Of a stretch of DNA of 64,000 nt, positions 3,384-17,434 are shown in pieces. Every line of letters starts with the position of its first letter. The first letter of the stretch is position 1. A program made the translations under genes and the position numbers. The notes under the pieces were generated by a model, which worked only from the letters and a program-made list of their open reading frames with translations, did not search any database and was not told the DNA's origin. The stretch comes from a virus (lineage: Duplodnaviria > Heunggongvirae > Uroviricota > Caudoviricetes), in the IMG/VR virus record IMGVR_UViG_2579778606_000002, positions 1 to 64,000 of that record; one strand, 5' to 3'.

Positions 3384-3635
3384 GTGTCAGATCGAAATAT
3401 AGCAGCTAAAAGCCAGGAAGAGCGAGACAAGGTGAACGTAGACCTTGCCGCCAGCGGCGTTGCTTACAAAGAACGGCTGAATATACCTGTGATTGCAGAG
3501 CAGGTGGCCCGTGAGCAACCGGAAAACCTGCGCGCCTATTTCATGGAACGGCTACGGCACTACCGGCAGTTAAGCCTCCAGTTGCCAAAAGGGAGCGATC
3601 CGGTGTATCAGAACGAGGATGCACCAAAAAAATAA
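3384..3635 (+). CDS. hot: Hot, homolog of DNA polymerase III theta subunit (HolE)
   Basis: [43 protein letters not shown] closely parallels E. coli HolE as I recall it; GTG start with GGAGG 5 nt upstream; same position relative to humD-phd-doc as in P1. Confidence 0.8.
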
Positions 3636-3720
3636 CGGCAAGATGGGGGAGAAATGTGATTAGCCCCCAGCGTGGCGCGCCTACAAACCCCGCTTTCACA
3701 AACTATGCCTTTTCAATGTA

Positions 3721-4220: not shown

Positions 4221-4442
4221 ATGCAATCCATTAACTTCCGTACCGCGCGCGGCAACCTTTCTGAAGTGCTCAACAATGTTGAAGCCGGGGAAGAGGTTGA
4301 AATCACCCGCAGAGGCCGAGAGCCAGCAGTAATTGTCAGCAAGGCTACTTTTGAAGCCTACAAAAAAGCGGCGCTGGATGCTGAATTTGCATCCCTGTTT
4401 GACACCCTGGACTCCACCAACAAGGAACTGGTTAACCGATAA
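4221..4442 (+). CDS. phd: Phd antitoxin (prevent host death)
   Basis: [49 protein letters not shown]... matches P1 Phd as I recall it; ATG at 4221 with GAGG upstream (ORF track start 4215 is GTG). Confidence 0.85.
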
Positions 4443-4822
4443 TGAGGCATATATCACCGGAAGAACTTATTGCGCTTCATGATGCGAATATAAGCCGCTA
4501 CGGCGGCCTGCCGGGAATGTCAGATCCGGGTAGGGCAGAGGCCATTATCGGGAGAGTTCAGGCCAGAGTTGCCTACGAAGAGATCACCGACCTTTTCGAA
4601 GTCTCCGCCACCTACCTGGTGGCTACAGCGAGAGGGCATATATTCAATGATGCCAATAAGCGTACCGCGCTAAACAGTGCGCTGCTATTTCTACGCCGTA
4701 ACGGTATACAGGTATATGATTCTCCCGTGCTGGTGGAACTTGCGGTGGGGGCTGCAACTGGTGAAATCCCCGTATCTTCAGTAGCGGAAAAACTACGTGA
4801 ACTATATGGTTCCAATATTTGA
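4442..4822 (+). CDS. doc: Doc toxin (death on curing, Fic-fold kinase)
   Basis: 126 aa, [39 protein letters not shown]... matches P1 Doc; TAATG overlap with phd. Confidence 0.85.
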
Positions 4823-5706: not shown

Positions 5707-6369
5707 TCACTCCACAACAAACCAGTCACAGGCCAGCAGGTCGCCAACTGAAGGCACCCACGGAACAACTACACCTTGTGCATTTTTTAAGGCGAAATAA
5801 GCACCATACGGAACGAGGTCGCCGGGAAAATATCCCTTAATGGCTTCCATTCGTGCCGGGTACTGTCCTTCAGGAACCAGCCAGCAGAATTGGTTTTCGC
5901 CGTTCCACCCACGTCGGGCAACTTTCTTGCCATCCTTCAGCCACATCAGCGCGTCAGAAAAGTCGGCTGCTTCAAGGTCGATTTCTTCTTGTAGAGTAGC
6001 GATACCGCCAGCAGAAATAGTTACGTCCCTGGCTGTAATGAATGTCACCCCATTGTGACCTTCAATGCTGAGCGATACCCCATTTTCGGAGGCGTCGTTA
6101 ACCCGGCTATAGCATTTTTCAAATGCTTTCTCTGGCACATAGACCAGATAGCCATTTTCAGCAGTGACGAGATATCCTCCTATTTGCGGTCGGAATTTTT
6201 CCAAGAACACACCATCAACACGAAGCGTCATTCCTTTTGGCTCAACGACTTCGATACTGCCAAAAATGGGCGCATAAGCTTCGCCGACAATAACAATATC
6301 TTTGATTTTCGATGCCCGAATGATGCTGTGGCTTTTGTATTTGGGGAACACCTGAAAAGTGCTGGCCAT
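5707..6369 (-). CDS. two-domain protein with C-terminal DUF2829 (Tad2-like) domain
   Basis: C-terminal ALMWLKDGKKVARRGWNG...VPWVPSVGDLLACDWFVVE fits the DUF2829 signature (A..LK.GKKVAR.GWNG ... PW..S..DLLA.DW.V). Confidence 0.5.
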   Translation of the reverse strand: MASTFQVFPKYKSHSIIRASKIKDIVIVGEAYAPIFGSIEVVEPKGMTLRVDGVFLEKFRPQIGGYLVTAENGYLVYVPEKAFEKCYSRVNDASENGVSLSIEGHNGVTFITARDVTISAGGIATLQEEIDLEAADFSDALMWLKDGKKVARRGWNGENQFCWLVPEGQYPARMEAIKGYFPGDLVPYGAYFALKNAQGVVVPWVPSVGDLLACDWFVVE

Positions 6370-7704: not shown

Positions 7705-7762
7705 AGTACCCTCCGCAATAGGCGAGGGTACTTTACATTAAAATGCACTGTCTAAAAAGATT

Positions 7763-10261: not shown

Positions 10262-11770
10262 TTAAATGTCAATATCAGGAATATCCACTTCTGCCAACAC
10301 CTGATCGCGGAATGTTGCTAGTTCTGCGCCAATGTCTTCATTAGCAGGCACGTAATCCACCAGCATAGTGAAGCAGTAGGTATCCCATCTGTCCGGCGAC
10401 TTGATGTTTAACTTCTGCCGCATGTGCTCCTTGCGCATCATCGCCACCTTCCCTTCTTCGTTAAGCATATACGGGATTTTTGATGCCTGATCGGCAGTTT
10501 TGGGGTCACTATCGATACGCATACGCCCTGATTTAATGGCATCCCCTGCCATAATATTGGCGTAAGCACGCTGATTGACAAAGCGTTCTCTGTCTCTTAG
10601 CGCAAACATAGGTTTACCCCAACGGATGCGAACGGGATTAGCACCACGGCGGACAAGCTGCGCACACGTATCTGAACCAAAGCCATCAGCATCCACAGCA
10701 ATGGTGATGTTCGGGTATTTATCAGGAGTGCATTCGTTATAGATAAAGTCGGCAAAAGCCAACGGGTCCATAGTGCCTGGCATCTCCAGTATCTTAAAGT
10801 TCACAACACGTCGTTTCTCACGATAACCGGATACTTTGCATATATTGAGCACCGATTTGTCGCGACCATTACCGACGTCAGCGGTCGCTACCCAGCCCCA
10901 ATCTTTCTCCAGCAACACTTTACGCCGTGCGGCGCGGTCGCACTCATCACGACCAAGCAAATACCCGTTAATTGCACGCGGGAACTGGCCCAGCACCTTA
11001 ACCATGTACTCCAGCGAATCCCTGCCGCCGTACTCCAGCAATTTCTCACGAATAAAGCTCGGTTCAACGAATGGAGATTCTTCAGAGTTAAGGACTATTG
11101 CCGTCCAGACTCCTTCCGGATTGCCTTCTGCCTTTGCCCTTGAATGGTGGGATTCATAAAAGTAACCGCTTGGACGCGTAGGCTGGGAAAGCATGAGCAT
11201 ACGGTTATCTTTCTGCGTTAACGCCCCCGTCATGACGTTAATCGCCTTATCTGATATGCCCGATGCTTCATCAAGGATTAGCAGTAAATGCTCCGCGTGC
11301 TCCCCCGCCAGTGCCTCTTCGTTACCGAGTCGATAACCTTTACAGAGCACTTCCCATATCCCTTTACGGGAACGCTCATAAAACATGGTGTCAGACAGGA
11401 CAAAATAGGTCTGTAACCAGCCGTGGCGCTTAACAGCATTCGCCCAAAACTGTTTCACGTATTTGAATACGCCTGTTTTTACCTGGCCTATTTTGTTCGC
11501 AACAATAATGACGCGGGCGTCGGGGAACAGGATCATAAAAATTAGTAGCAACATCGCGGTAAGGGACGACTTACCCGTTCCGTGTCCGGACGTAACGGTC
11601 GTCCTGCTCCCCGTCTCCTGCACTGACTGAATGATCTGCTGCTGCTGGTGGGAGGGGAACATCCCAAAAATATCGACAACCGCCTGGGTAAAGTTGTATC
11701 GATACCTGATAACCATATCGCGCCAACGTGGATCACTGGTGACGCACTTAATCTTACGACCACCAGCCAT
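10262..11770 (-). CDS. pacB: terminase large subunit (PacB-like)
   Basis: 502 aa, Walker A GHGTGKS, nuclease-like C-terminal half; immediately downstream of pacA-like gene as in P1. Confidence 0.75.
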   Translation of the reverse strand: MAGGRKIKCVTSDPRWRDMVIRYRYNFTQAVVDIFGMFPSHQQQQIIQSVQETGSRTTVTSGHGTGKSSLTAMLLLIFMILFPDARVIIVANKIGQVKTGVFKYVKQFWANAVKRHGWLQTYFVLSDTMFYERSRKGIWEVLCKGYRLGNEEALAGEHAEHLLLILDEASGISDKAINVMTGALTQKDNRMLMLSQPTRPSGYFYESHHSRAKAEGNPEGVWTAIVLNSEESPFVEPSFIREKLLEYGGRDSLEYMVKVLGQFPRAINGYLLGRDECDRAARRKVLLEKDWGWVATADVGNGRDKSVLNICKVSGYREKRRVVNFKILEMPGTMDPLAFADFIYNECTPDKYPNITIAVDADGFGSDTCAQLVRRGANPVRIRWGKPMFALRDRERFVNQRAYANIMAGDAIKSGRMRIDSDPKTADQASKIPYMLNEEGKVAMMRKEHMRQKLNIKSPDRWDTYCFTMLVDYVPANEDIGAELATFRDQVLAEVDIPDIDI

Positions 11771-13134
11771 TAGTCATCCTCCGGCTGGTCTATCGCAATC
11801 TCGTCATCTACAGCATCAAAACCGGTATCCCCCGCGTCATAATCACCGTAGATATCAGCCGTGGCGGAAGGGTCTATATTCAGGTCTTCATCATTGGCCT
11901 CAAATTCACCGGCTTTACGTTCTCCGTTCCGGTCGTAATCCCCCATCCCAAGCCTATCAACGATTTTCGCTACTTCAGCCCGGCGTTGTGCAAGCCATTG
12001 TGGGAGTCCAGCTTGTTGCTCGGCAAACTGCTTCGCCTCTTTATCCAGTTGCTCATCATCAACATCGTTAACGTCAGAAACCGGAGGCTCCAGAAGTGAG
12101 ATCGCTTTTGCCGCTCGTGCCGCCAGGATAGCCGGGACACTGACGCCCTGCCGCTCGATATATTCAGCAACGCCTATATCGTCCAGCTCCTCGCGCTCAC
12201 GCATACGTATAGCGGCGGCGATAACTCTGGCGGCGCGTGCGTCAGCGCCAATGCGATACTCAATCTCTTTGCCACGCTGCTCGGCTTGCAGGCGAGTAAT
12301 CGCCAGTTTTTCTCTGGCCTCAGCCTCTCTGAATGCCTGCTGGCGCGCGCCCTGCGCAAGTTTTTCATCCCCCTGGCGTAGCTTCTGCTCGGTCTGGTAG
12401 ATGGCAGCCAACCTACTGATAAAGTCATTCATGTAGTAGGCCGCATCGCTTATTAGGCCGAGAAGACGCTGCCCTGGGTGCATTCCCTCTGGCTGTGTAT
12501 CGCCGAGGGCGTCAATCTCTTCCTGTAGTCGTTCCGCTTCCTGGTCAACGATGGCCTGATACTGAATTGCTCGTTCCTGCGCCATCTGTATCGCAAGTCG
12601 TAAATGTTCAGTCGCGCCGTTCTTCATCATCTCACGGGCGACGTTGGTGGCAGGCAAAGTGGCGCTTTGAGCTGATGAGTCAGGGATCATTTGCAATGAT
12701 CCCTTGTTTCGTTGGGCTTTTTCGCTGCTTTTAGGGATCATTTCCCCCATTTCATCACAAAATGATCCCCTTACATCCTTGTGTATCTTATTGTTATTAC
12801 TTGGCTTTTCTTTGTGATCCGCATTTTGTTTTTGCGGCATGGCGCGGAATCGTCCACCAGCTAACGATTTGTCAGTTTTTGTAAATTCTGTGCTTTTATC
12901 AGCCTTTTTTTGCTCTTTTTTTGGGCTTGTGGCGCTACTTTTTGCGCGCTGTTTTGTACTTTTCCCGGCAGCCTTAGCTTTCGCTTTAACCTCGTTTTTT
13001 TTCATATTGAGATGCTTTCTGGCGGTGTTAAAGCTGAGGTCATGCTGCTCGCAATATTCTTTTATGGTGATCCCGGTTTCTTCTCTTAACTCCAGGAACT
13101 TAGCTCGATGCGCTTCCCAGTTAATTAACGTCAT
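11770..13134 (-). CDS. pacA: terminase small subunit / pac-recognition protein (PacA-like)
   Basis: 454 aa, N-terminal HTH-like region, Lys-rich linker, acidic C-terminus; contains GATC-rich pac-like cluster near 5' end. Confidence 0.6.
   Translation of the reverse strand: MTLINWEAHRAKFLELREETGITIKEYCEQHDLSFNTARKHLNMKKNEVKAKAKAAGKSTKQRAKSSATSPKKEQKKADKSTEFTKTDKSLAGGRFRAMPQKQNADHKEKPSNNNKIHKDVRGSFCDEMGEMIPKSSEKAQRNKGSLQMIPDSSAQSATLPATNVAREMMKNGATEHLRLAIQMAQERAIQYQAIVDQEAERLQEEIDALGDTQPEGMHPGQRLLGLISDAAYYMNDFISRLAAIYQTEQKLRQGDEKLAQGARQQAFREAEAREKLAITRLQAEQRGKEIEYRIGADARAARVIAAAIRMREREELDDIGVAEYIERQGVSVPAILAARAAKAISLLEPPVSDVNDVDDEQLDKEAKQFAEQQAGLPQWLAQRRAEVAKIVDRLGMGDYDRNGERKAGEFEANDEDLNIDPSATADIYGDYDAGDTGFDAVDDEIAIDQPEDD
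12685..12829. other. pac: candidate pac site: five GATC-containing hexamer elements (TGATC[C/A]) within 145 bp inside 5' part of pacA
   Basis: GATC at 12685, 12698, 12736, 12764, 12826 embedded in repeated GGGATCA / TGATCC elements; P1 pac is a Dam-methylated hexamer cluster inside pacA. Confidence 0.45.
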
Positions 13135-13523
13135 AGGGAAGCCTCACGTTTTTTCACAGCGGCGTTCCATAGCTGGTTAGTCATCGCCACCAACTGACGC
13201 TGCTCCTTTCGTAATTGAGCTTCTATCTTTCGGTTGGTGTTTTTCACCAACAGCCGACCGAATTCAGGAGTGCGCCCGCGCACCTTGAACTGGTATCCAT
13301 TCAGGCCATGTAGCCAATATTTCCGGGGGTATACGCGGTCGTCTATTTCGCAAATGGCACGACTGGAACGAACAAAAAAACGTATGATGTTATTTACGTT
13401 TACGCGCGACACATGAAGGTGAGGATATTGTGCTTTTGCACGGCTGGTGATTTCGGTGACCGTCAGATAGCAGTCAGCCCTGATCATGATATCCGCTATT
13501 TCGGCGCTACTGATTTGCTCCAT
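13131..13523 (-). CDS. lpa: possible late promoter activator (Lpa-like), 130 aa
   Basis: Position immediately upstream of pacA as in P1; operator-like motif just upstream; assignment by synteny only. Confidence 0.35.
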   Translation of the reverse strand: MEQISSAEIADIMIRADCYLTVTEITSRAKAQYPHLHVSRVNVNNIIRFFVRSSRAICEIDDRVYPRKYWLHGLNGYQFKVRGRTPEFGRLLVKNTNRKIEAQLRKEQRQLVAMTNQLWNAAVKKREASL

Positions 13524-13600: not shown

Positions 13601-13610
13601 TATTAGAAAA
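13601..13610 (+). promoter_or_regulatory. operator-like motif variant TATTAGAAAA (followed by TTAATATT) upstream of lpa-like gene
   Basis: Intergenic 13524..13630. Confidence 0.4.
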
Positions 13611-13630: not shown

Positions 13631-14014
13631 CTACCAGCGGGATAAACGAACAACATGCTTAACTTTTGCCTCCCACTTCCCTTTATGTTTGTTGATCACC
13701 GCCTGCGCCATCTTCAGACTGGCTTCAAAATCGGCTTTTCGACCACTATTGCCCACCAGCAACGCTCCGTCTATTTCGGGTAAGCATAAGTAATCCTGCT
13801 CGACGGTAAGCGGCATTGATGATGTAACCTGGCAGGCTTTCCATCTGAAGCGTATGCGCACACTCCTGACTGACATCACGACATAACCTGATATTGTGCT
13901 CTTGTGTCCGGCGTCTGTGCGTGTAGCCTTGCATGATGTTATCTTGCAGGTGATGATGTCCCAACCAATGTGCATCGCATCCTCAATGCGTAATTTAGTA
14001 GCCTCGTACATCAA
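13631..14014 (-). CDS. hypothetical protein, 127 aa
   Basis: ORF in minus-strand operon. Confidence 0.4.
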   Translation of the reverse strand: MMYEATKLRIEDAMHIGWDIITCKITSCKATRTDAGHKSTISGYVVMSVRSVRIRFRWKACQVTSSMPLTVEQDYLCLPEIDGALLVGNSGRKADFEASLKMAQAVINKHKGKWEAKVKHVVRLSRW

Positions 14015-14586
14015 AAAACCTCCCAGTCAGTAGCGATAATATCGACACCAGTTGCAAACCAGTCTGTCTGCGCCTGTAAATCCCCATTCATCATTACCAG
14101 GCGAGGCATAACCATCACATCACAACCTTCAACAATATCGAATGCCTCTTCCGGCAGGAATTCGACGAGCTTTTCTTTGCTGCCAACACTGCCACGGAGC
14201 ATCGATATATAGCTCCCTTTAGGCCATGATGTTCGCCGGGCATCAAGCCCCTTCATCATCCAGTAAAAGGCCGATGAGAACGGGATGTTCTTTTTGGCGA
14301 TGAGCACGTTATTCGCTTCTGTGTACTTCAGGAACTTAACTAACCTTACCATCGACTCGGATAACGCAATGTACGGCTCATGATTGATTGCTGACACGCT
14401 TACGCCGTGCAGTCCAACACTTACCACTGTCATATCACCGTTCTGTGCGGTTTCGATGTTGACGCCTTTACGAACTAACGCTGCATAAAGCTCCTCGCGC
14501 TTTTGCGTCCAGCATTCTCGTCGCCCTATAAAGTCACTCAAAACGAGATCATCTTCTGAATACGCGTTATCGTTCGCCGTTAACAT
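14011..14586 (-). CDS. protein with C-terminal DUF2829-like domain
   Basis: FYWMMKGLDARRTSWPKGSYI ... DWFATGVDIIATDWEVF resembles DUF2829 signature (weaker than 5707..6369). Confidence 0.45.
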   Translation of the reverse strand: MLTANDNAYSEDDLVLSDFIGRRECWTQKREELYAALVRKGVNIETAQNGDMTVVSVGLHGVSVSAINHEPYIALSESMVRLVKFLKYTEANNVLIAKKNIPFSSAFYWMMKGLDARRTSWPKGSYISMLRGSVGSKEKLVEFLPEEAFDIVEGCDVMVMPRLVMMNGDLQAQTDWFATGVDIIATDWEVF

Positions 14587-15040
14587 AACGTCTCCTTTTT
14601 TACACGCGCGACTATCCCCCGGCTGAACCGGTAGTGACGTCGTAAATTCGTATTAATTAAGGGTTACAGCCTGAGCGGCTATATGATGAATTGAAAGGAG
14701 TTGTGGCGGTGGTGCCTCCACCTGCCAGGTTAGCCACGCCCGGCGACGACACTTATCAGAACGTAGTGAATGAAAATGGCTTCGTCACGAGCGCATAGCC
14801 GCAATTACCACAACGGAGAAGGCGCTCGTATTAATTAAACACCTTTTCCTGTTGTACGCCGTGCTATTCCGGCTGTCACACCGAATCGCCAGGATGGTGA
14901 GTCCCTGAGTCCGCTACCCTACCAACGGTGACTTGCACATTCCGGCTACCTGATGTGCCCATGCAGTGTTAGTAAGGCACCTAACAGCTACACCAGACCG
15001 CTAACGACGCATGTGCCATACGCCGTGTTACAACCAAATG

Positions 15041-15117
15041 TGGTGGCCCCTACCGGACTTGAACCGGTGACCGTGCGATTATGAGTCGCCCGCTCTAACC
15101 ACTGAGCTAAAGGGCCA
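15041..15117 (-). tRNA. tRNA-Ile2-like (anticodon CAU; could be read as Met without lysidine modification)
   Basis: Reverse complement GGCCCTTTAGCTCAGTGGTTAGAGCGGGCGACTCATAATCGCACGGTCACCGGTTCAAGTCCGGTAGGGGCCACCA folds as cloverleaf; anticodon arm GGCGACTCATAATCGC like E. coli ileX. Confidence 0.7.
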
Positions 15118-15544
15118 GATTACTGTTAATTACGCTTACGCTTTTTGCCAGAACCGCGTAAGGCTTTTGCCGCTTGCTCTACCCCGTATGCAACCACCAG
15201 CAGAAACAATAATGTCCACTCCGGGTTTTTATCGGCAAACGCCCAAAAATCCATCACTTGCAGCCACCTTTTAAGACAAACGCCATTGCTGTTAGGTTGC
15301 GGTGCCGGGTGCCTCCCGGTGACGTTAACCAGTTAACAATTAACGCCGGATCACTTATGGATTCTCGTTACGCCAGTAAAAAGACCACCTTTACTGTTTT
15401 AACTGTTCCGCGTGCGCTTAGCCGCATTCACCGCAATGGTAAGAGCATTTGGCTGACTGGGCGGCGATGACGCCTGTACGCATTTGGTGATCCGGTTCTG
15501 CTTCCGGCATTCGCTTAATTAGCCAAATACTCTTAACGTTGCGA

Positions 15545-15631
15545 TGGCGGAGAGTAATGGAATCGAACCATCATCGCTTGGGCGACGGGACGGTTTTCAA
15601 GACCGCTTGAGCACCATGCTCCCTACTCTCC
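15545..15631 (-). tRNA. class II tRNA, probable tRNA-Ser (anticodon UGA); D-arm atypical
   Basis: 7-bp acceptor GGAGAGT/ACTCTCC, discriminator G, CCA, anticodon loop CTTGAAA, long variable arm, T-loop TTCGATT. Confidence 0.45.
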
Positions 15632-15872
15632 AGTGATTGTGGTGGTCGGTGCTGATCTCCGACTGCGCCTCTTTTTTTCATAGCCCATAAGGCCGGTCAG
15701 TGCGCTTGATGACTGAGGCATCGATATTTACTACGCCGCCTCGTTGCCATAGGGCGGACTTGCGCGCCAGCAACGCGCATTCACCACAACGGTAAGGGTA
15801 CTTCGTAGGGATTCGAACCCTCTGCCAAGCACGGCGATCTCCGACGTCGCAAAATACCCTTACCTGTTGTGT

Positions 15873-15948
15873 TGGTGCCGGTTAACGGACTCGAACCGCT
15901 GACATCCTGCTTACAAGGCAGGCGCTCTACCAACTGAGCTAAACCGGC
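15873..15948 (-). tRNA. tRNA-Thr (anticodon UGU)
   Basis: GCCGGTTTAGCTCAGTTGGTAGAGCGCCTGCCTTGTAAGCAGGATGTCAGCGGTTCGAGTCCGTTAACCGGCACCA; canonical cloverleaf. Confidence 0.8.
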
Positions 15949-15952
15949 AATT

Positions 15953-16039
15953 TGGTGGGGAGTGATGGAGTCGAACCATCCGAGTCGCAATGACAGTAGA
16001 TTTACAGTCTACCCCGCTACCCCTACGGACTAACTCCCC
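15953..16039 (-). tRNA. class II tRNA, probable tRNA-Tyr (anticodon GUA)
   Basis: Acceptor GGGGAGT/ACTCCCC, anticodon arm GTAGACTGTAAATCTAC and variable arm similar to E. coli tRNA-Tyr; D-arm imperfect. Confidence 0.55.
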
Positions 16040-16044
16040 TAAAT

Positions 16045-16121
16045 TGGCGATGGTGGGTGGATTCGAACCACCGACCGACAGCTTAGAAGGCTGCTGCTCT
16101 ATCCTACTGAGCTACACCATC
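16045..16121 (-). tRNA. tRNA-Arg (anticodon UCU, reads AGA)
   Basis: GATGGTGTAGCTCAGTAGGATAGAGCAGCAGCCTTCTAAGCTGTCGGTCGGTGGTTCGAATCCACCCACCATCGCCA; canonical cloverleaf. Confidence 0.75.
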
Positions 16122-16582: not shown

Positions 16583-16606
16583 AAAAAACACCCACCCGAA
16601 GGTGGG
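16583..16606 (-). terminator. rho-independent terminator (minus strand): CCCACC-TTCG-GGTGGG then TGTTTTTT
   Basis: Stem-loop with tetraloop followed by T-tract when read on minus strand. Confidence 0.5.
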
Positions 16607-17305
16607 CAAATATCCCACTCGCGGTATTGCCACTTAGGCGTATGGTCAACCTGGCAACTCGGTGTCCTCAACGGGGAAGGAATAACCCCGCCATACTTAC
16701 CGCCGCGCCTGTCGCGGTTATCGCTACGTATCAACATAAAAGCCGACTGCCTGAGCAAGATTCACTTTCAAAGGCCCGCAGAAAGGAATCCATAGTCGGC
16801 TTTTATCTTGAAGCGGCTCTCTCTCCGCCCGTCACCGTCCTATCCCGGTTGTCGCGTTTGCCACGCCAGCCGTAACGAGGTTTAAAGTCTTTTCACGTTT
16901 TCATCACTCGACTGCCGTCTATGGCTGTTCGTTGCAGCGGGGGTGCCTCCCCCTGGGGATATCCCCGGCCTTACCCCCATTCTTTCAAAACACAATGCAA
17001 GGCCACATCCGCATAGGTGCATTACCGCAACGTTAAGGAGACTCAGAGTCAGCAAAATAAGAGGAAAACCCAACTCTGCGCCTCCTTAACGTTGAGGATG
17101 TGCACTGATGATGACCCGATGCAGCCTGGCCCACTTAACATACTCACTGCCAGATCATCATCAATGAACACCTTAAAAAGACCTTCCGTGGCTCAAGTCA
17201 CTGTCGTTTACTCCGTAAAATGCTCTCGCTGAAACCACTTTACGCACTAAACCTGCCGGGCATGTATTTGCACGGTGCCGGAGCTTTCCCTTACCTTAAA
17301 ATTTA

Positions 17306-17316
17306 CTTTCTAACAC
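17306..17316 (-). promoter_or_regulatory. operator-like motif (CTTTCTAACAC on plus strand)
   Basis: Partial copy of dispersed motif in ORF-poor region. Confidence 0.3.
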
Positions 17317-17434
17317 TTAAGTTTGTTTGATGCTGGTGGGGGAAGACAATGAAGTGACTATCAAACCCGCAAGCGACATGGGAAGCTCCCCACCAGCACG
17401 AAAAATTCTATGTTAAGTTAATTCCATAATCAAC

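Follow-up and report, generated by a model that had tools for sequence, protein, structure and literature searches.

A divergent two-domain Tad2-family protein, probably an anti-defence sponge, encoded 5' of lpa on a D6-like phage-plasmid

Introduction

The stretch of viral DNA analyzed here (the window; 64,000 nucleotides, positions 1 to 64,000 of record IMGVR_UViG_2579778606_000002) carries on its minus strand, 5' of the lpa/pac operon, a gene whose product was suggested from sequence alone to end in a DUF2829-like domain. The original prediction described this domain as a weaker match than a second one encoded at 5707..6369, and proposed that the two were divergent paralogous sponge-like domains which could target different immune signals. 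The locus therefore raises the question of whether a second, divergent member of the Tad2 family is encoded there and, if so, whether it still acts as a sponge for an immune signal or has been put to another use.

Results

Gene and genomic context

The open reading frame at 14011..14586 (minus strand) was present as predicted. It encodes a 191-aa, two-domain Tad2-family protein, the homolog of D6 gp006/orf6 (ORF list, Pfam and PHROGs), and is preceded by a ribosome-binding site, a Shine-Dalgarno AGGAG read from the sequence at 14592..14596 (minus strand), 5 bases 5' of the ATG, which is kept in D6, the Shigella element and the MIN14 plasmid. Both strings quoted in the original prediction were found in the translation (FYWMMKGLDARRTSWPKGSYI, residues 107-127; DWFATGVDIIATDWEVF, residues 175-191). 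The dN/dS ratio against D6 was 0.086 for the whole gene, 0.11 for the N-terminal half and 0.049 for the Tad2 domain; the gene is real and under purifying selection. The whole protein matches phrog_7362 (PHROGs; function unknown) with E=2e-131, while PADLOC and NCBIfam scans gave nothing useful, with no NCBIfam model matched.

The window is a phage-plasmid of P1 type, similar to D6. DNA identity to Escherichia phage D6 is 82% over the region, and the order tRNA cluster, ORF-free leader, Tad2-like gene, orf5, lpa, pacA, pacB, c1 is the same in D6. Placement 5' of the lpa/pac operon was also correct: lpa (late promoter activator; PF25716, E=3.7e-50), the next gene downstream after orf5, lies at 13131..13523 (minus strand), followed by pacA at 11770..13134 and then pacB. 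Phage D6 gp006 (YP_009914683.1, named "hypothetical protein" in D6) and the D6-like plasmid copies are orthologs, with 92% amino acid identity, equal length and the same neighbours. Five tRNA genes (Met-CAU, Ser-UGA, Thr-UGU, Tyr-GUA and Arg-UCU) occupy 15041..16121 on the minus strand, the last before the leader being tRNA-Met (CAU) at 15041..15116 (ARAGORN; Rfam tRNA, 66.7 bits). The Ser tRNA of this cluster scored just under the threshold of the Rfam tRNA-Sec model. In D6, tciA and tciB separate tRNA-Ser from the Tad2-like gene; the corresponding interval of the window has no ORF of that size.

With respect to distribution, PLSDB has the gene on 125 plasmids, from Escherichia, Salmonella, Shigella, Pantoea and Enterobacter; of 5426 complete E. 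coli genomes 94 carry it, in every case on a plasmid of ~90 kb. Relatives of the gene keep the site 5' of lpa in an element of Shigella dysenteriae (53% identity), on Pantoea plasmids (~24%) and in L021 and L022, a pair of metagenomic phage-plasmids (92-94 kb; 20-23% identity). P1 has no homolog at the corresponding site, where pdcA and pdcB (HNH protein) precede lpa instead. A DefenseFinder survey reported Tad2 in 93% of the phage-plasmids in the D6 group and 56% of those in the P1 group, without stating which of the two genes was detected (bioRxiv 10.1101/2025.09.12.675607).

The Tad2 domain

Residues 103-190 (14017..14280, minus strand) matched PF11195 (Tad2-like, formerly DUF2829) with E=4.4e-10 and 40.4 bits over profile positions 3-72 of 73, against a curated gathering cut-off of 25 bits. 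As the original prediction had it, this is the weaker and more divergent of the two matches, the copy at 5707..6369 scoring 80.2 bits (E=1.6e-22). PF11195 is present in all full-length relatives of the 191-aa protein. A search of 1.84 billion representative proteins returned only 18 at E<=0.001. One further candidate from that search, the 4941-aa protein P0012 with 16 matched stretches, was rejected as repetitive and unrelated to Tad2, its score being the sum of weak repeats.

A direct phmmer search of the PDB with the 191-aa protein gave only marginal matches (SptTad2, E=0.54), so a structural search was needed. An AlphaFold2 model was built from a subfamily alignment of 17 relatives taken from the representative search. 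It shows two domains, with a mean pLDDT of 89 and a pTM of 0.64, at which value their mutual arrangement is uncertain. In the model residues 103-190 form an N-terminal helix, an antiparallel sheet and a short C-terminal helix, as in Tad2. The nine best Foldseek matches in the PDB were all Tad2 proteins (SPO1 Tad2, ModTad2, SptTad2 and HgmTad2/AcrIIA7; target-normalised TM 0.62-0.84), and the best fold matches in BFVD were Tad2-like phage proteins, many with N-terminal extensions. The original prediction had named an unrelated fold as its refutation; profile HMM and structure comparison both gave Tad2, and the domain assignment was right. Identity to the solved proteins is 16-29% (SPO1 Tad2, 8sme/8smf/8wje; ModTad2, 9eib/8v3e; HgmTad2/AcrIIA7, 8kbi-8kbm; SptTad2, 8wjd), and these lack the ~100-aa N-terminal domain present in the 191-aa protein.

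The family assignment is in fact already known. The current RefSeq product name is "Thoeris anti-defense Tad2 family protein", a label missing from the original prediction, and the protein is a variant of Tad2 rather than a new kind of system. Older records use "hypothetical protein" or "MW1434 family type I TA system toxin", and the PDB entry 8kbi is titled AcrIIA7; these names would suggest either a type I toxin or an AcrIIA7-type anti-CRISPR. Both roles are scarcely credible. The MW1434 label goes back to an S. aureus prophage protein of 81 aa that was listed on bioinformatic grounds, and it has been replaced in newer RefSeq records. The present protein is no small hydrophobic membrane peptide: at 191 aa it is soluble and acidic, with a GRAVY of -0.03 and a top 19-residue Kyte-Doolittle mean of 1.2, and has no hydrophobic or transmembrane-like segment. 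As to the anti-CRISPR role, Li et al. failed to reproduce Cas9 inhibition by AcrIIA7/HgmTad2 (bioRxiv 10.1101/2023.11.15.567273).

The ligand pocket

In SPO1 Tad2 the ligand 1''-3' gcADPR is in van der Waals contact with W25 and W73 and in polar contact with N26 and D79, with I63, T65, D67, H71, S76 and T78 as further contributors (bioRxiv 10.1101/2023.05.01.538930). In HgmTad2 the diphosphate is bound by N22 and G23, and binding was lost in the W21A/N22A and S90A/T92A/D93A mutants (bioRxiv 10.1101/2023.11.15.567273). The pocket was compared by aligning the 191-aa protein with the four solved Tad2 proteins. SPO1 Tad2 contacts ligand or water through ten residues, of which four are identical here (W25, D67, W73 and D79, corresponding to W121, D169, W176 and D182), and S76 is conservatively replaced by T179. 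The remaining five are changed: N26 to P122, I63 to M165, T65 to N167, H71 to Q173 and T78 to V181, the last being valine in ModTad2 too. W176, T179, V181 and D182 belong to the segment W176-F-A-T179-G-V181-D182 (14041..14061, minus strand), the equivalent of W73...S76.T78.D79 in SPO1 Tad2, and W176 and D182 are invariant over the subfamily and the solved Tad2 proteins.

The main difference lies in the loop at W121-P122 (14221..14226, minus strand). Every solved Tad2 has W-N-G at this place; here the glycine following the replaced asparagine is deleted, W-N-G-K becoming W-P-K, and the loop is one residue shorter. Within the subfamily the residue following the invariant tryptophan varies (P, R, D, M, N, G or H), in contrast to N-G in all solved Tad2 proteins. 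Given W-P-K in place of the phosphate-contacting W-N-G, the protein probably accepts a different range of ligands than the canonical copy at 5707..6369, as far as the aligned residues indicate. The cyclic-dinucleotide residues of HgmTad2 and SptTad2 (R31, S47, F70 and N85) were not kept, the aligned residues being L130, F143, V159 and T174 in a part where the alignment is unreliable. The insertion between beta2 and beta5, which is long in the cyclic-dinucleotide subtype, is of intermediate length and has an L-P-E motif.

Experimentally tested relatives and the second Tad2 copy

A screen of 84 sponges challenged Tad2 homologs 68-84 with type I, II and IV Thoeris, two CBASS and two Pycsar systems (Table S2, bioRxiv 10.1101/2025.08.24.671296); our reading of the table columns was checked against the paper's text for Tad2_70 and Tad2_71. 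The 191-aa protein, its motifs and the 5707..6369 product were not among the entries listed in the supplementary tables of that screen. The closest tested homolog of the present Tad2 domain is Tad2_69 (BLASTP, 31% identity, E=4e-10), with a W-P-Q loop, followed by Tad2_72 (27% identity, E=2e-9), with a W-P-K loop. Both are metagenomic viral proteins with a single domain and a length of 80-108 aa; they share the W-P loop with the 191-aa protein, Tad2_72 exactly as W-P-K. In the screen Tad2_69 failed to inhibit any of the seven systems, Tad2_72 gave a positive plaque assay against type I Thoeris only, Tad2_79, with a W-S loop, was active on types I and IV Thoeris, and Tad2_80, of the W-P type like Tad2_69, inhibited nothing (bioRxiv 10.1101/2025.08.24.671296). 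Since Tad2_72 and Tad2_79 are active, the loop asparagine is not indispensable; with one of the two closest homologs active and the other inactive, the activity of the 191-aa protein is not predicted by them.

The gene at 5707..6369 (minus strand; 220 aa) encodes a canonical Tad2 domain with a W-N-G loop, matches solved ModTad2 with E=6e-20, and has a Tad2 domain 65% identical to the tested Tad2_68, which inhibits type I and II Thoeris (bioRxiv 10.1101/2025.08.24.671296). D6 has both Tad2 genes. The N-terminal part of the 5707..6369 product (residues 1-130) matches phrog_11049, and residues 57-98 gave a weak match to the phage L decoration protein Dec (6e3c_C, E=0.0019).

The two copies share a domain family and an element, and each has an N-terminal extension, but these N-terminal domains are unrelated. 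That the copies belong to one family, as the word "paralogous" in the original prediction implied, was borne out. A recent relationship was not: their domains are ~20% identical, and the divergent copy is closer to SptTad2 (29%) and HgmTad2 (26%) than to its counterpart on the same element. Judged on these identities, they are two old lineages of one family and not a duplication within the element. The further proposal that they target different signals is plausible, and the profiles of their tested relatives fit it without proving it.

The coupled gene orf5 and a possible change of use

The D6 orf5 homolog at 13631..14011 (minus strand; ORF list) encodes a basic protein of 126 aa (pI 9.7) that matches phrog_7004, of unknown function. 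Its ATG overlaps the stop codon of the Tad2-like gene (TGATG), and the two genes are thus translationally coupled. The same coupling occurs in the distant phage-plasmids L021 and L022, where the orf5 homology is 32% identity (E=5e-8); Pantoea eucalypti pEuc3 has no orf5, and the Tad2-like gene stands alone there. The orf5 product is a probable partner of the Tad2-like protein. Its AlphaFold model was unusable (pLDDT 48.6).

This coupling, kept over such distances, bears on an alternative in which the Tad2 fold has been retained for a changed use. With its W-P-K loop, extra N-terminal domain and seemingly obligate basic partner, the protein would bind a molecule outside the set of known immune signals, or would form a two-protein module with that partner and have another role early in the lytic programme, for example in regulation at a site beside lpa. 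The free variation of the residue after the invariant tryptophan, the failure of the W-P types Tad2_69 and Tad2_80 to inhibit any system and the narrowness of the lineage, with its 18 proteins among 1.84 billion representatives, point the same way. Against it, the invariant positions are those of the Tad2 pocket (W121, W176 and D182) together with the structural core, a W-P-K protein (Tad2_72) actively inhibits Thoeris, and the pEuc3 gene does without the partner. We regard a changed use as rather doubtful, though it is a serious contender to the reading of the protein as a sponge.

The N-terminal domain

In the AlphaFold2 model residues 30-91 (14314..14499, minus strand) form an alpha-beta-beta-beta-alpha domain which resembles a double-stranded RNA-binding domain (dsRBD) and is acidic, with a pI of 5.0. 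The fold is like that of the type-B dsRBDs TRBP dsRBD3 and Staufen1 RBD5, but at 10-12% identity there is no sequence similarity. There was no Pfam dsrm match in the domain, and the basic RNA-contact motifs (the GPxH loop and the KKxAK helix start) were absent, the second helix beginning EPYIALSES rather than with a basic KKxAK-type motif. As a bacterial-viral, acidic domain it shows resemblance to the dsRBD fold only, not membership of that family. Given the acidic pI, the non-basic helix start and the lack of a dsrm match, we think it likelier that the modelled domain serves in protein contacts or assembly than that it binds RNA.

A structured RNA motif in the leader

The gene is separated from tRNA-Met by a GC-rich leader of 454 nt (14587..15040, minus strand) with no ORF of at least 40 aa on that strand. 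This leader is better conserved than the coding sequence: in the Shigella element long GC-rich blocks are invariant while the protein is only 53% identical, and the two Shigella leader insertions, of 61 nt and 17 nt, both fall in predicted hairpin loops. The leader contains the first of three minus-strand copies of a cloverleaf-like RNA motif, at 14698..14816 (119.9 bits with the covariance model). The second, at 15294..15439, overlaps a sub-threshold Rfam STnc100 match (40.9 bits; cut-off 47), and the third is at 16929..17033; all three were found with the covariance model. Neither the leader nor copy 1 has an Rfam match, and no Rfam family reaches threshold for any copy. The consensus fold is an 8-bp closing helix (GUUGUGGU/GCCACAAC) around four arms. 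Over 20 sequences 95.4% of cells were paired and 16 of 29 pairs showed double changes; the covariation score, in an alignment fitted to the model, was 0.392. Slid partners gave no more than 0.089, and none of 500 shuffles reached the observed score. A literature search on the motif sequence found nothing relevant.

Beyond the window the covariance model found copies in D6, P1, Shigella, Pantoea and L022, the motif-bearing loci being L001, L002, L003, L006 (277..404), L007-L019 and L022. The ~120-nt core also occurs in chromosomal prophages of Kluyvera, Enterobacter, Raoultella, Klebsiella, Citrobacter, Silvania and Buttiauxella, in an ORF-free stretch with a cI-like repressor gene before it and early genes after it. 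The motif is not tied to Tad2-like genes, and none of these was among the ORFs listed at the 12 chromosomal prophage loci. By the covariance model there was no copy in HK022, which serves as the model for put antiterminator RNAs.

Several further features were observed near these motifs. A 13-nt exact direct repeat, TCGTATTAATTAA (plus strand), flanks copy 1 at 14648..14660 and 14826..14838 and occurs nowhere else in the window; the 14826-side copy differs in D6, MIN14 and Shigella, and the repeat may be due to chance or be a recombination scar. In L022, a relative of the Pantoea group, a tRNA that ARAGORN names "tRNA-Stop" (3610..3693; anticodon UUA, a possible ochre suppressor) adjoins an RNA motif copy 5' of the Tad2-like gene. 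In the Raoultella prophage locus L015, a match to the Rfam tRNA model (4415..4541; 39.9 bits) lies ~250 nt 5' of the motif and at 127 nt is far longer than a normal tRNA.

The presence of a structured RNA motif and a tRNA cluster directly 5' of a gene for a dsRBD-like domain raises the alternative that this domain binds structured or double-stranded RNA, such as the neighbouring cloverleaf-like RNAs or tRNAs, and couples RNA recognition to the Tad2 domain. With the domain acidic, its second helix lacking a KKxAK-type start, no dsrm match, and the motif standing at 12 prophage loci with no Tad2-like gene among the ORFs listed, we consider this very unlikely.

Transcription and operators

No promoter was found directly upstream of the Tad2-like gene. 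The nearest upstream, TTGATT-17-TAGAAT at 17405..17433 (minus strand), lies after pmgS and is the sole sigma-70-like promoter on that strand between 14.5 and 17.6 kb. It is accompanied by copies of the 9-mer TRTTAGAAA at 17307, 17436 and 17457. This 9-mer occurs 13 times in the window against 1.2 expected (positions 7762, 9076, 9159, 13601, 17307, 17436, 17457, 18702, 19757, 30311, 31512, 58237 and 61198), a count reached in none of 100 shuffles. One copy, TATTAGAAA at 13601..13609 (plus strand), lies in the orf5-lpa interval and corresponds in position to the P1 C1 operator Olpa; two precede the c1 homolog, and three surround the promoter-like site. TRTTAGAAA is probably the core of the element's own C1-type operator; the P1 C1 operator consensus is absent from the window. 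A P1-type late-promoter pattern was found 15 times in the window, with 15 expected by chance.

No operator-like 9-mer lies between 13610 and 17306, and the Tad2-like gene may be transcribed early, under repressor control, on a long RNA that would run through the tRNA cluster. Such a transcript would resemble the tciA-trnI-ban arrangement of P1, in which the tRNA and the first 190 nt of leader 5' of ban match 14857..15145 with 84% identity. A hairpin resembling an intrinsic terminator (16589..16608, minus strand; TGCCCACC-TTCG-GGTGGGTG, then a T run) lies on the operon strand between RNA motif copy 3 and the tRNA cluster and raises the question of read-through or antitermination. As it sits between the promoter-like site and the gene, the case for a long transcript is weakened.

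Discussion

Taken with the behaviour of characterized Tad2 proteins, these data suggest that the gene at 14011..14586 encodes a divergent two-domain Tad2-family anti-defence sponge, probably for an ADP-ribose-derived TIR/Thoeris signal, on a D6-like phage-plasmid; we assign this reading a probability of about 0.55. In solved Tad2 proteins, which are homotetramers whose pockets lie between protomers, the ligand is sandwiched by two tryptophans and an aspartate, and the Tad2 domain keeps all three. By analogy, this domain would most likely assemble into an oligomer. This oligomer would bind and sequester a nucleotide-derived immune signal, most probably an ADP-ribose-derived one (e.g. 3'cADPR), and the host effector would then never be activated.

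A bolder proposal is that the W-P-K two-domain lineage, with its basic partner, sequesters a signal that escapes all tested Tad2 proteins, such as an undescribed enterobacterial TIR or nucleotide messenger. We think this unlikely; if true, there would be two sponges per element with complementary specificity, and the dsRBD-like domain would represent a new mode of assembly or partner recruitment.

The gain from the present analysis is incremental, the family, the mechanism and the presence of Tad2 in D6/P1 elements being already known. We found no earlier account of an acidic domain with a dsRBD-like fold at the N-terminus, of W-P-K as the loop of this lineage, of orf5 as a coupled partner or of a conserved placement 5' of lpa, and the original prediction had likewise not mentioned the N-terminal domain, the coupled downstream gene or the structured RNA leader. 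The structured RNA motif just 5' of the Tad2-like gene may be a more original lead than the gene itself.

As to the family, the 191-aa protein offers a cheap test of whether the Tad2 pocket can drift from W-N-G to W-P-K with sponge action retained, and the gene also allows one to ask whether two Tad2 lineages on one element cover different signals. Phage-plasmids of the D6/P1 type are frequent among pathogenic E. coli, Shigella and Salmonella, and the signals which these elements neutralise, once known, would help to explain their host range and stability.
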